Below are positions 12,007 to 15,388 of a stretch of DNA of 64,000 bases, in pieces. Made by a program: the position numbers and the translations under genes. A model generated the notes under the pieces. That model saw nothing but the letters and a program-made list of their open reading frames with translations, did not search any database and had not been told where the DNA came from. Origin of the DNA: Bacteroidales bacterium (lineage in GTDB: Bacteria; Bacteroidota; Bacteroidia; Bacteroidales; UBA932); NCBI GenBank assembly GCA_017552475.1, contig JAFZPY010000126.1:126-64125 (forward strand), written 5' to 3'. How positions within the stretch are numbered: the stretch's first letter is position 1; every line of letters begins with the position of its first letter.

Positions 12007-12076
12007 AGGAGCAAATGATTATTGGTTAAACTATGCAAATTTAAGAGTTTTGATGGAGTGTGCAAATATTTTTGAG

Positions 12077-12257
12077 GGGATTTAGTCGCTTCGCGCCGAC
12101 ATCCCTGCCTCCTCGCCGGAGGGGCCCTGCAAAGCATGGAATGGCATCTCGGGCCTTCGGCCCTCTGGTGCTTTTTCATTGAACGACCCTTATGAGAACA
12201 AGTTCTCAACGGGCCGTCCAACAAAAAAGCACCGCAGCTTCGCTGCGATGCCATTCT
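12077..12257 (-). repeat. Structured REP-doublet-like element, copy A (3' of tRNA-Ser UGA)
   Basis: GAATGGCATC-GCAGC GAA GCTGC-GGTGCTTTTT...AAAAAGCACC-GGGCC GAA GGCCC-GATGCCATTC-ATGCTTTGCAGGGCCCCTCCGGCGAGGAG...AAATCCC; homologous to 13572-13756. Confidence 0.85.
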
Positions 12258-12263
12258 TTTTTG

Positions 12264-12348
12264 CGGAGAGAGAGGGATTCGAACCCCCGGACCCGTGAAG
12301 GTCAACAGTTTTCAAGACTGCCGCATTCGACCACTCTGCCATCTCTCC
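12264..12348 (-). tRNA. tRNA-Ser (anticodon UGA)
   Basis: GGAGAGATGGCAGAGTGG...GCAGT-CTTGAAA-ACTGT, long variable arm, GGTTCGAATCC, CTCTCCG. Confidence 0.96.
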
Positions 12349-12463
12349 AGATGGAGCTATCGGAGACTTCGGCTCGTACGCCGCCTGATCCGTAGCTTAG
12401 GGCCTGCCTTTTTTTGACAGGAGTGCAAAGGTATGCTTTTTTTCTGAATGAGCAAAATAATTA

Positions 12464-13423
12464 TCAGAAAATCACCTTCGTTACTGCATCATTGACCTCG
12501 ATTGTCACCTGACGGCCGATGTAGAGAGGGTAATTCTTGGTATCGTGACCGCAGGGGGCTCCATAGATTACGGGAATGCCGTATTTCTTGAAAACGCGCG
12601 CGGACATTTCTTCAATAGTAAAATTACCCTTTGTAGGACAGTCAGTCAATTCGCCGATGAGAATACCTTTGACGCCTTTGAGCTTACCTGTCAGGTCGAG
12701 CTGGGTCAACATACGGTCTATGCGGTATGTAGCTTCTTCGACTTCTTCAAAAAACAGGACAGCCCCATCCAGGTCATATTCATATGGCGTACCTATCTCG
12801 CTGGCAATGATGCAAAGATTGCCTCCGACCAGCCTTCCCGTCACGATGCCACGATCCGAAGCAGCATCGGTAGGGAATTCAAAGCCACGGTATTCTCCGA
12901 ATAGCGCCTGCCTCATATATTCCGTGCTGACGGCATCATAATCAATGGTAGTGAGGACAGGAGAATGCAATCCTTCAATACCAACGCTGTTCAATGCACA
13001 AAACACAGCGGTCACATCGCTGAAGCCGGCGATCCATTTTGCACCGCCCCTGGTGAAATCCACCTTGTCAATAATATGTGAGGCCCCATATCCGCCACGT
13101 GCCATCACTATGGCTTTAACGGAAGGATCATCAATCATCCTCTGCAACTCCAACGCCCTTTCTTCAACCGTCCCGGCGTAGGTATGGTCATTTTTATACA
13201 CATTGGAAGCGACAACCACCTCCAGCCCCCAGCTCTTCAATACATCCACACCGCGCTTAACCTTGTTAGCGCTGACTGATGATGATGCAAGACACACCGC
13301 CACCTTGTCTCCACGCTTGAGATATGGAGGCGTTGTCATACCATCTGTTCCGGCTGCTTTGCCTGAAGTACAGCCCATGGCCGAAATGACCACCGAAGCC
13401 GCAATAGCTAATATTCTTTTCAT
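12464..13423 (-). CDS. ldcA: LD-carboxypeptidase (peptidase S66), lipoprotein
   Basis: ARGGYG, GFSD (Ser), GGNL, FFEEV (Glu), CGH (His); signal SAMGC. Confidence 0.9.
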   Translation of the reverse strand: MKRILAIAASVVISAMGCTSGKAAGTDGMTTPPYLKRGDKVAVCLASSSVSANKVKRGVDVLKSWGLEVVVASNVYKNDHTYAGTVEERALELQRMIDDPSVKAIVMARGGYGASHIIDKVDFTRGGAKWIAGFSDVTAVFCALNSVGIEGLHSPVLTTIDYDAVSTEYMRQALFGEYRGFEFPTDAASDRGIVTGRLVGGNLCIIASEIGTPYEYDLDGAVLFFEEVEEATYRIDRMLTQLDLTGKLKGVKGILIGELTDCPTKGNFTIEEMSARVFKKYGIPVIYGAPCGHDTKNYPLYIGRQVTIEVNDAVTKVIF

Positions 13424-13480
13424 ACGGAAGACAAATATATGGAAAAATCACTAAATTTGCACTCCTGACACACGTCTCAA

Positions 13481-13565
13481 GGTGAGTTGTCCGAGTGGTT
13501 GAAGGAGCCTGCCTCGAAAACAGGTGTACGGCAACGTACCGGGGGTTCGAATCCCTCACTCACCG
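13481..13565 (+). tRNA. tRNA-Ser (anticodon CGA)
   Basis: GGTGAGTTGTCCGAGTGG...CCTGC-CTCGAAA-ACAGG, long variable arm, GGTTCGAATCC, CTCACCG. Confidence 0.96.
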
Positions 13566-13571
13566 CAAAAA

Positions 13572-13756
13572 GGAATGGCATCGCAGCGAAGCTGCGGTGC
13601 TTTTTTGATGTCCCGCCGTTGCAAGCTTGCTTGCAAAAGGAGGGGCAGCGAAAAAGCACCGGGGGTCACGGAGTGACACCGATGCCATTCCATGCTTTGC
13701 AGGGCCCCTCCGGCGAGGAGTCAGGGATGTCGGAGGGCGAAGCCCGACGAAATCCC
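13572..13756 (+). repeat. Structured REP-doublet-like element, copy B (3' of tRNA-Ser CGA)
   Basis: Same conserved blocks as copy A, with different but still base-paired internal hairpins. Confidence 0.85.
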
Positions 13757-13907
13757 GATGAATGAAAATCATGAGACACAACTTTTAGTCTTAGGCATCA
13801 TCCTGTGCGCAATTGTGCTGATGAAGAAGAAATAGTGTATTCCTGTATAGGCGTGATAACACTTGCAATCATCGGCAATATTTGCTATATTTGCATATCA
13901 TAGTATT

Positions 13908-13946: not shown

Positions 13947-14258
13947 ATGGAATACCGAATAGATAACTACTCCAGGAATCCCAAGTTTTTGCTGGACAGG
14001 TTAGCCGCTAATTGCAAGGCCCGGAGGCTGGAGAAAGGATACAGCAGAAGAACCCTGTCAGATTTGACCGGCGTTCCTGCACCCACCATCGAACGATTTG
14101 AGAGGACCGGGAAAATTTCGCTGGAGTCCTTTTGCCAGATCGCCATTCTGTTTGACTATTTTGACGAGGTAGCCGCCATACTGAACCATACCAAATACTC
14201 CACCTCGCAGGAGCTGGAAAGCATTAATAAAAACCATAACAGAAAGAACGGACGCTAA
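13947..14258 (+). CDS. XRE-family HTH antitoxin (HipB-like)
   Basis: KARRLEKGYSRRTLSDLTGVPAPTIERFERTGKISL; TAATG coupling to hipA. Confidence 0.85.
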   Translation: MEYRIDNYSRNPKFLLDRLAANCKARRLEKGYSRRTLSDLTGVPAPTIERFERTGKISLESFCQIAILFDYFDEVAAILNHTKYSTSQELESINKNHNRKNGR

Positions 14259-15388
14259 TGACAGGAGTCAAAAAGATTCAGGTGCTGTTTCGCAACCATC
14301 CTGTGGGAGTCCTGCAAATGGACCCTTCCCAGGGCGTTTGCGTCTTTGAGTATGACAAATCCTGGCTGGCCGGAGGGTTCTCCCTGTCTCCCACCGAATT
14401 ACCTCTTCAAAGCGGCCTTTTCTATGCAGATAAGGATAAGTTGGGCGGGGTTTTTGCCACTTTTGAGGACAGCCTGCCAGATGGATACGGCCTGTACCTT
14501 CTAGACCGGATTCTTCGAAGACAGGGGTCTTCGCTTCAGGAACTCACACCGCTGCAGAGGCTTTCTATCATCGGCAACGGCGGAATGGGTGCCCTTTCCT
14601 ACAAACCTGTCATGACGGGCTTCCAGACTCAAGAGGAGCTGGAAGGAGAACAGCAACTTGACTTCTTGCAGGAAGAGGCCCTTAAGGTTCTTTCTGAAGA
14701 ATCCGGCGGAGATGCCTCTCTCCTGTACTATAACAGTGCCAACTCCGGTGGAGCGCGTCCGAAGACAGTCATGAGGTCCCGGGACGGTTCCCACTGGCTG
14801 GTCAAGTTCCGGCACACCTATGACCCTTCCGACATCGGCGAATCCGAATTGCTTTACATGCAAACCGCAAGGGAGTGCGGAATCACCATCCCGCGCATCG
14901 GCCTTGTGCGGGACAGATATTTTGCCATAGAACGCTTCGATTATGCCCCGGACGGGCAAAAAGTCCATATTCTCACCGCATCAGCCCTTCTCAAAACCGA
15001 TTTCCAAAACCAGAATGTAGATTATACCAATCTGCTGGCCCTGACGGGGTATCTTACACAAGATCCCGTTCAGGTAGAGGAAATGTTTCGAAGAATGGTT
15101 ATGAACCTGGTAGCCATAAACAAGGACGATCACGCCAAGAATTTCTCTTTTATTTGCGAAGCCGGGAAATGGTCTCTGGCTCCGGCCTACGATGTCACAT
15201 ACTCACCGGCTGGCTCCAATGGCGAACATGTCACTTCGCTCTTCTACAACGGAAATCCAGGCCTGGACCTGGTCCTGAAGGCAGGAACAGGGATCCGTAT
15301 TCCGGAATCCCGCTGTCTGGAAATCATTCGGACAGTCCAATCCGTCTGCGAGAAGAACCTTCCTGTTATAGCAAAGCTATTACCTTAA
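14258..15388 (+). CDS. hipA: HipA-family serine/threonine kinase toxin
   Basis: Couple_HipA N-domain (DSLPDGYG), SGGARPK P-loop, ERFD, NKDDHAKNFS, LAPAYD. Confidence 0.93.
   Translation: MTGVKKIQVLFRNHPVGVLQMDPSQGVCVFEYDKSWLAGGFSLSPTELPLQSGLFYADKDKLGGVFATFEDSLPDGYGLYLLDRILRRQGSSLQELTPLQRLSIIGNGGMGALSYKPVMTGFQTQEELEGEQQLDFLQEEALKVLSEESGGDASLLYYNSANSGGARPKTVMRSRDGSHWLVKFRHTYDPSDIGESELLYMQTARECGITIPRIGLVRDRYFAIERFDYAPDGQKVHILTASALLKTDFQNQNVDYTNLLALTGYLTQDPVQVEEMFRRMVMNLVAINKDDHAKNFSFICEAGKWSLAPAYDVTYSPAGSNGEHVTSLFYNGNPGLDLVLKAGTGIRIPESRCLEIIRTVQSVCEKNLPVIAKLLP

Follow-up and report, generated by a model that had tools for sequence, protein, structure and literature searches.

A multi-hairpin element at the 3' ends of tRNA-Ser genes in rumen and gut Bacteroidales, a divergent relative of the Clostridiales-1 family

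In a 64,000-nucleotide stretch of an uncultured Bacteroidales genome (contig JAFZPY010000126.1 of assembly GCA_017552475.1, here called the window), each of two tRNA-Ser genes is followed by a gene-less element that is predicted to fold into a series of hairpins. As judged from its sequence and predicted fold, this element is a divergent, uncatalogued, tRNA-anchored relative of Clostridiales-1 (Rfam RF01699). Most relatives carry, at their far end, the reverse complement of the last 12-17 nt of the tRNA that they follow, allowing a four-stem junction to form with the tRNA's own 3' strand. We tentatively place the tail of the element and this closing repeat at the DNA level, as parts of a non-autonomous, recombinational or formerly mobile element whose match to the tRNA would be kept by copying.

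Two copies of one folded element in the window

The two genes, tRNA-Ser(TGA) and tRNA-Ser(CGA), are divergent, with an LD-carboxypeptidase gene between them (Table 1). The element copies behind them, A and B respectively, align across ~190 nt and share three letter-identical blocks: GAATGGCATCGCAGCGAAGCTGCGGTGCTTTTTTG, AAAAAGCACC and, over ~60 nt, GATGCCATTCCATGCTTTGCAGGGCCCCTCCGGCGAGGAG.CAGGGATGTCGG. Three hairpins (the central one, the third, and the inner one of the last arm, P3) differ in sequence between the copies and keep their pairing. A first-pass annotation of the sequence had reported both the shared element and these stems, and the alignment bears it out, stem by stem. The element frames are more alike than the tRNAs themselves, which share 62 of 85 columns.

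RNA folding of the two copies gave -108 and -101.8 kcal/mol (z = -8.7 and -7.9), energies equalled by none of 200 shuffles. Both copies share one predicted fold, in which an outer stem, GCAAA/UUUGC, starts from the discriminator and encloses a four-way junction of two mirror units and a central hairpin, followed by P2 and P3. In copy B the mirror unit and the frames of unit 1 pair with each other, so that arm 1 takes the form of a four-way cruciform, and the central hairpin is the counterpart of the apex of arm P1 in relatives and of the long arm of RF01699.

The first-pass annotation had also proposed that each unit can alternatively fold as a terminator, one per strand. A terminator scan made calls at 13577-13601 (+) and 12252-12228 (-), each with TTTTTT and each on the tRNA-sense strand, so the first unit behaves as proposed in both copies; the mirror unit, whose stem has mismatches, was not called as an opposite-strand terminator in either. 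From its sequence and position, arm 1 is the predicted intrinsic terminator of the tRNA. The other two tRNA-Ser genes of this genome (GCT and GGA) have plain terminators, and neither BLAST nor a covariance model found a third copy of the element in this 2.0-Mb, 80%-complete metagenome-assembled genome (MAG).

Kinship with Clostridiales-1

At the curated Rfam thresholds, the two tRNAs are the only matches in the window. At permissive thresholds, copy B aligned across the full RF01699 model with 32.5 bits (E 1e-5 in a 241-nt search), below the gathering threshold of 48 bits, and copy A gave no match. Two minimal relatives (loci L151 and L131) exceed this cut-off with 63.4 and 62.2 bits. In their alignment to the model, the tRNA-Ser acceptor 3' strand and the flank of the element make up the closing helix, P1 with its GCUUGC apex takes the place of the long arm, and P3 that of the 3' hairpin. 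The element and RF01699 share a four-stem junction of one arm order: a long arm capped by G(CUUG)C, a middle hairpin and a 3' hairpin of the form GGAU..purine-rich internal loop..C(GNA)G..AAUCC, with a 7-bp helix closing the junction. Within the window, the long arm with the GCUUGC apex is present, as is a 3' hairpin (P3, 13724-13756 and 12077-12105) whose GGAU...AUCC stem encloses a C(GNA)G hairpin; the outer helix that closes all three arms is absent there and present in most relatives.

The RF01699 model scored above its cut-off in only 1 of 151 genomes of this genus, and we therefore regard the Bacteroidales branch as a divergent, uncatalogued variant. RF01699 members proper are 168 nt long, occur dispersed in many copies, share one constant closing helix and do not lie beside tRNAs. 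The Bacteroidales element, unlike them, closes on the 3' strand of the neighbouring tRNA, occurs in 1-6 copies and uses arm 1 as a predicted tRNA terminator. The window copies depart further from the family in having arm 1 expanded to a cruciform and the closing strand lost; they are also not dispersed, both copies of this genome lying behind tRNA-Ser. The first-pass annotation, which recognised no named family, has to be corrected on this point, and kinship with a known Rfam family tells in part against its reading of the element as well.

In Lachnospiraceae, sampled as the family of a Roseburia MAG, RF01699 matched 77 of 141 genomes with at least 18 scored copies in many of them. No tRNA lay within 1.5 kb of 27 of 30 such loci, the closing helix was constant (UGAUGCC/GGCAUCA), and tandem 168-nt arrays occurred. 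In the RF01699 seed itself, single genomes contribute dozens of nearly identical 168-nt copies. The covariance model R1, which we built from P2 and P3 alone with tRNA sequence excluded, matched the Lachnospiraceae copies weakly (12.6 bits, E 0.07) and precisely at the P3 hairpin. A sample of 151 genomes from the order to which a Ruminococcus MAG belongs contained no RF01699 match. As observed in passing, bona fide Clostridiales-1 copies stand head-to-tail with a 168-nt period at L239 (G540:C2, ~840-1542), and in Lachnospiraceae an extra hairpin (GTTGGGGCTTTTGACCCCAAC) comes after every copy, and then ATCAT, which repeats the element start (ATGATRCC).

Rfam labels Clostridiales-1 'sRNA' (small RNA), and the family has been catalogued since 2010 without a function. 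In the original description, covariation was reported and the motif was judged a structured RNA with no function named (Weinberg et al. 2010, PMC2864571); the text and supplements consulted mention no tRNA or other genomic anchor.

The element matches the 3' end of its host tRNA

The simplest form of the element, which is also the commonest, runs in order from the tRNA through GCAAAG..., arm P1, ...CTTTGC, P2, P3 and a spacer of 0-3 nt to the closing strand. P1 is a long hairpin between A and T runs with a 1x2 internal loop and the apex CRAG-CUUG-CUYG (G(CUUG)C in 30 of 55 relatives). P2 reads CCCGCC-GCA-GGCGGG or CCTCC-GGCGA-GGAGG, and P3 reads GGGAT-G-TCG-GA-(variable hairpin)-GA-CGA-AA-ATCCC. 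The closing strand, 8-17 nt long, is the reverse complement of the 3' end of its own tRNA, from the discriminator back into the T-loop. Its mean match to that end was 12.4 of 16 positions, compared with 10.7 for the ends of other tRNA-Ser genes, and in 38 of 56 cases the match to its own tRNA was at least as good as that to every control.

P3 resembles the tRNA in a second way, its 3' strand being a repeat of the tRNA's (G)AATCCC and its 5' strand the complement, antisense to the 3' side of the T-loop and T-stem. Together with the flank it forms the palindrome GAAATCCC-N9-GGGATTC. P3 changes with the host tRNA: behind a tRNA-Ser(GGA) whose T-stem is ATCTCG, it reads CGAGAT...ATCTCG (L006), and behind a tRNA-Ala it reads GAGAT...ATCTC with a flank that is the exact complement of the tRNA-Ala end at 15 of 15 positions (L173, G272:C125). 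The P3 stem and flank are likewise rewritten to the host behind a tRNA-Gln (L092); copies behind tRNA-Ala or tRNA-Gln are rare. The tRNA-Ala(TGC) at L173 lies downstream of tRNA-Ile(GAT), a layout typical of a ribosomal RNA operon spacer.

Measured against this form, the window copies are a variant in which arm P1 has gained two extra hairpins and the closing strand has decayed (copy B) or gone (copy A, which has no counterpart of it). The remnant in copy B matches the expected strand at 9 of 14 positions, and all five differences are G to A. Intermediates that combine a cruciform arm with a standard P3 occur at L021, L063, L108 and L121.

Distribution in the genus

BLAST gave partial matches in 10 of 36 genomes of the genus, each of them directly 3' of a tRNA-Ser wherever the contig sufficed. 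In a pattern scan of one genome per prokaryote species, true modules were nearly confined to MAGs of rumen and gut Bacteroidales and lay typically 75-85 nt behind tRNA-Ser. Model R1, which scored copy B at 72.8 bits and copy A at 63.4 bits, matched 82 of 151 genomes of the genus with 1-6 matches per genome, and 1 of ~148 genomes elsewhere in the order. Covariation in the model is wide: 12 of 19 pairs were changed on both sides, and none of 500 shuffles reached the observed score. Among the best 29 R1 loci, 23 stand 77-340 nt 3' of a tRNA-Ser (TGA, CGA, GCT or GGA anticodon), which upholds the annotation's claim that the element is tied to tRNA 3' flanks. The remaining six comprise one locus behind a tRNA-Ala, one at a contig end and four that we call orphans. 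Modules whose nearest tRNA is over 1.5 kb away, orphan or distal, retain the complement of the tRNA end.

Three contigs bearing the tRNA-Ser form (L045, L081 and L082) come from MAGs labelled Coprococcus eutactus, Eubacteriales and Roseburia and nevertheless look Bacteroidales; one open reading frame at L045 shares 78% identity over 357 aa with a protein encoded in the genome studied here. This suggests mis-binning or mislabelling.

RNA-like and DNA-like signatures lie in different arms

A rival to the DNA-level reading, which we consider possible and rather unlikely, is that the junction is a functional part of the pre-tRNA-Ser transcript or a released 3' trailer RNA, in keeping with the 'sRNA' label in Rfam. 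Past the U-tract of arm 1, the downstream strand would capture the 3' strand of the tRNA acceptor and T-stem, and the junction might lock unterminated precursors, gate 3' processing or form a protein-binding four-way junction. Arm P1 speaks for an RNA. Across 48 relatives it holds 68 G.U pairs on the tRNA-sense strand compared with 7 on the other, and the folding energy of the sense strand is lower in 44 of the 48. Because of this bias and of the arm's position as tRNA terminator, single-stranded DNA is not the sole object of selection.

Beyond the terminator arm the signature is different. P2 and P3 covary, as all arms do, yet they show 12 G.T against 26 A.C, so that the wobble excess expected of an RNA is absent, and 54 of 107 of their loops are C(GNA)G triloops, which are exceptionally stable in DNA. 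The single-stranded-DNA loop signature claimed in the first-pass annotation stands for the tail. Several features suit an RNA: P3 has tandem G.A pairs and conserved unpaired purines and is highly conserved across the genus, P1 ends in the G(CUUG)C apex, a classic RNA tetraloop, and the motif has been judged a structured RNA by those who described it. The folded strand of the tail is again the sense strand: the opposite strand would turn GNA loops into UNC and tandem G.A pairs into U.C, and where P3 sequences differ the sense strand is the more stable in 46 of 49. In predicted minimum-energy folds of read-through precursors, the flank captured the tRNA 3' strand and left no cloverleaf in 13 of 13 relatives, making an RNA 'lock' of the read-through precursor physically plausible.

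Several observations count against a trailer RNA. A competent terminator stands between the tRNA and P2-P3, and the tail would therefore be transcribed on read-through only. The RNA fold needs no repeat of the T-stem in P3, yet this repeat is present even behind tRNA-Ala. Among the mismatches of the closing helix, C.A on the sense strand prevails. Patchiness and dispensability of the element, retention of the complement in modules remote from any tRNA and the lack of the closing strand in the window copies point the same way. No weight is put on a wobble test of the closing helix (G>A 12, T>C 7, A>G 6, C>T 0), in which base composition and end effects are confounding factors.

An antisense small RNA with its own promoter was considered and set aside: an opposite-strand -7 box precedes the tail of copy A, none precedes that of copy B, and in L013 a terminator and not a promoter precedes the module.

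Turnover at tRNA-Ser ends and the case for copying

The tRNA-Ser end is a site of turnover in this genus. Tandem full or partial units are common (L131, L137, L081, L181 and L045), and at L021, L108, L121 and L103 the flank matches another tRNA-Ser allele than that of the adjoining gene. At L006 a 21-bp direct repeat of the tRNA end occurs at 199-nt spacing with a second terminator behind it. The four orphans each open with 12-17 nt from the 3' end of a tRNA-Ser, and P1, P2, P3 and the flank come next. For one of them the surrounding event can be read: at L189 (G074:C33, 357-13095) a 13-kb island lies in tRNA-Ser(TGA), with the intact tRNA and a plain terminator at one side and the orphan at the far side. 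The island carries a tyrosine integrase (445 aa, with SAM-like and catalytic domains), a serine resolvase and a type I restriction-modification system (HsdM, HsdS, HsdR), and it is bounded by the tRNA and by a displaced 17-nt tRNA end. This end differs at one base, which would place the crossover in or near AATCCCT. This layout marks the tRNA-Ser end as a live integration site, and the tRNA there does without the element; the element is dispensable to tRNA-Ser genes. Upstream of the orphan modules at L168 and L177, we also observed that genes end in small hairpins made of an acceptor-stem complement and copy (GCGGAGAG-loop-CTCTCCGC and GGCGGAGAGG-loop-CCCTCCGCC), ~150 nt before the displaced tRNA-end fragment.

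In the DNA-level reading that we prefer, an element docked on tRNA-Ser 3' ends in one large genus of rumen and gut Bacteroidales would be made, or kept matched to its tRNA, through copying, by insertion at the segment from T-loop to 3' end, by gene conversion or by quasi-palindrome template switching. The copying would take place at a site that tyrosine integrases also use, and arm 1 alone would have a routine RNA job, that of tRNA terminator. Copying is preferred to slow compensation because P3 and flank have both switched to the host sequence behind tRNA-Ala and tRNA-Gln, because the tail lacks a G.U signature and because the catalogued relatives are dispersed repeats. The window copies, having lost the closing repeat, are most likely immobile relics now serving as terminators, and exchange between the two inverted loci, 1.3 kb apart, may have kept them alike.

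A number of results weigh against this reading. Besides the predicted capture of the tRNA strand and the RNA-type apex tetraloop, P3 is near-invariant across species whose orthologous proteins are 60-75% identical, a pattern that fits purifying selection, possibly on RNA, equally well as recent spread. Copy number is low, with 2 copies in this genome and 1-6 in relatives. Copy B had no BLAST match in phage and plasmid collections, and the pattern scan of viral contigs returned chance matches within coding sequence only. At the one island junction examined, that of G074, it is the chromosomal side that holds the element. A search allowing up to 2 mismatches in 16 found no direct repeat of the tRNA end within 12 kb for copy A or 50 kb for copy B, and among ~50 relatives L006 was the only case; a far-boundary repeat of the tRNA end is also present at the 13-kb G074 island. 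No Y1/HUH gene (PF01797) was matched in the 80%-complete genome, in a search in which control genomes gave matches, and no integrase adjoins the window tRNAs, the genome's two PF00589 tyrosine recombinases lying on contigs C25 and C143. The comparison of empty and filled sites that the first-pass annotation had recommended yielded no pair by any of three routes: the carboxypeptidase between the tRNAs had no close orthologue, esterase orthologues (up to 75% identity) were not beside tRNA-Ser, and the right flank of L006 was itself repetitive.

Three specific schemes of mobility were rejected. Classical integration with direct repeats fails on the absence of such repeats except at L006. There is no support for an invertible segment bounded by the tRNA end and the inverted copy, the flipped configuration occurring in none of ~190 loci. 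The attempt to draw a cassette boundary from L121 and L031 gave no clean junction, their common right-hand homology being a 75-nt gene remnant.

A broader extension of the copying idea, which we think unlikely, holds that there is a widespread undescribed class of protein-less tRNA-homing elements, each with an antisense and a sense copy of the T-loop-to-3'-end segment around a folded core and moved or copied by an unknown enzyme. Such an element would rebuild the tRNA end and supply a terminator; Clostridiales-1 would be the first catalogued member, and this genus would hold its tRNA-Ser branch.

Quite unlikely, in our judgement, is that the elements are functionless scars, att-site or terminator leftovers of successive islands at a tRNA-Ser hot spot whose palindromes are kept by templated repair. 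Such scars would suit the tyrosine-integrase island with its duplicated tRNA end at the same site, the toxin-antitoxin and defence islets beside modules (hipBA in the window; RhuM/Fic and HEPN/MNT in L110), the tandem, partial and mismatched units, and mosaic homology with abrupt ends. Scars would be expected to decay, yet P3 and the P1 apex are almost letter-identical in dozens of species, the helices covary far above shuffles, the four-stem layout recurs in another phylum, and the G074 island's own side is without a module.

Least probable is the mechanism favoured in the first-pass annotation, a folded single-stranded-DNA substrate of a HUH/Y1 enzyme (REP-associated tyrosine transposase, RAYT, or IS200/605) or of an integron-type integrase encoded elsewhere: the dominance of C(GNA)G triloops in the tail, the constant choice of the tRNA-sense strand as the folded strand and the likeness of the Lachnospiraceae relatives to dispersed miniature elements agree with it, and against it stand the missing Y1_Tnp match, two copies per genome in place of hundreds, the lack of any match on viral or plasmid records, and, for integrons, the absence from the element of attC boxes RYYYAAC/GTTRRRY (its ends read AATCCC.../...GGGATT), of a nearby intI-like gene and of a cassette array with an integron integrase.

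Comparison with known systems

Parallels exist with the att sites of tyrosine-integrase islands at tRNA genes and with their integrase-less derivatives, cis-mobilizable elements (CIMEs), where the copied segment likewise runs from T-loop to discriminator; the duplicated tRNA end of the G074 island and the 21-bp direct repeat of L006 belong to the same pattern. Among Bacteroides, NBU2 uses tRNA-Ser 3' ends (PMC6692515). The element differs from such att sites in that the usual repeat is here inverted, the element lies on the chromosomal side and the window has no adjacent integrase. With Rho-independent tRNA terminators it shares hairpin 1 and a U-run after the discriminator and A-run, as well as the RNA-type G.U bias; the conserved apex, the mirror unit, P2, P3 and the complement of the tRNA end are all superfluous to a terminator.

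In having hairpin units in inverted arrangement within gene-less intergenic DNA, and a structure better conserved than its sequence, the element also recalls repetitive extragenic palindromes (REP) and bacterial interspersed mosaic elements (BIME) with their RAYT enzymes, and IS200/IS605 miniatures. These are high-copy, dispersed and accompanied by a Y1 gene, unlike the two tRNA-bound copies found here without one. In the tRNA-linked repeats of Escherichia coli, each unit behind a tRNA gene finishes with the last 18-19 nt of that tRNA. Here too short units stand in rows behind a tRNA gene, each with a piece of its 3' end; the E. coli repeats differ in being direct copies with no reported conserved multi-hairpin fold.

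Three findings bear on the nature of Clostridiales-1: one branch is welded to tRNA-Ser 3' ends, its closing helix would be formed with the tRNA's own acceptor/T-stem strand, and one of its arms, the T-arm mimic, is rewritten with a change of host tRNA. A tail acting in RNA would amount to a cis element that can unfold a tRNA precursor; a tail acting in DNA would indicate that tRNA ends are the target of a copying or insertion process. The taxonomic picture of the family is corrected as well, since it is abundant in an uncultured rumen and gut Bacteroidales genus and some Clostridia-labelled carrier contigs look Bacteroidales.

Feature coordinates and neighbouring genes

Table 1. Positions of the tRNA genes, element parts and adjoining toxin-antitoxin genes in the window.
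Feature	Position	Strand	Details
tRNA-Ser(TGA)	12264-12348	-	ARAGORN and Rfam (3' end at 12263 or 12264); last 16 nt AATCCCTCTCTCTCCG, the segment that the element family copies and mirrors
tRNA-Ser(CGA)	13481-13565	+	ARAGORN and Rfam (last base 13565 or 13566); 3' end AATCCCTCACTCACCG
Copy A, entire	12077-12263	-	
Copy A hairpin 1 and T-run	12223-12252	-	predicted intrinsic terminator of tRNA-Ser(TGA)
Copy A central hairpin	12180-12220	-	A(CUUG)U apex (GAGAA-CUUG-UUCUC)
Copy A mirror unit	12139-12176	-	hairpin 3 GGGCC-GAA-GGCCC
Copy A P2	12107-12126	-	
Copy A P3	12077-12105	-	inner hairpin CGC-GAA-GCG
Copy B, entire	13565-13756	+	first base is the discriminator G of tRNA-Ser(CGA)
Copy B hairpin 1 and T-run	13577-13606	+	predicted intrinsic terminator of tRNA-Ser(CGA); 11-bp stem, one G.U, C(GAA)G loop
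Copy B central hairpin	13610-13646	+	G(CUUG)C apex (GCAAG-CUUG-CUUGC), asymmetric internal loop
Copy B mirror unit	13651-13690	+	AAAAAGCACC, hairpin 3 (GTCAC-GGA-GTGAC), GATGCCATTC
Copy B P2	13703-13722	+	GC hairpin CCTCC-GGCGA-GGAG
Copy B P3, T-arm mimic	13724-13756	+	GGGAT-G-TCG-GA-(GGGC-GAA-GCCC)-GA-CGA-AA-ATCCC
Copy B decayed closing strand	13757-13770	+	GATGAATGAAAATC; expected GGTGAGTGAGGGAT
hipB-like and hipA genes	13947-15388	+	helix-turn-helix protein (103 aa) and toxin (376 aa; HipA_C, Couple_hipA domains)

The genes around the copies encode the LD-carboxypeptidase, proteins of the TM2 and DUF2752 types and, directly 3' of copy B in the tRNA-Ser flank, the type II toxin-antitoxin pair hipBA. 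tRNA-Ser flanks are hot spots of islets and integration. Both strands carry readable -7 boxes of the Bacteroidetes type (TAnnTTTG) at 12030-12070, in the interval from the TM2-domain gene start (12006) to where copy A ends, and the minus-strand box suits the TM2 gene. An unrelated repeat of ~130 nt (query positions 170-305) was met at L006 (950-1280, G010:C107) and on contigs of G088, G318 and G089; it occurs 3-5 times per genome in several members of the genus at 72-95% identity.

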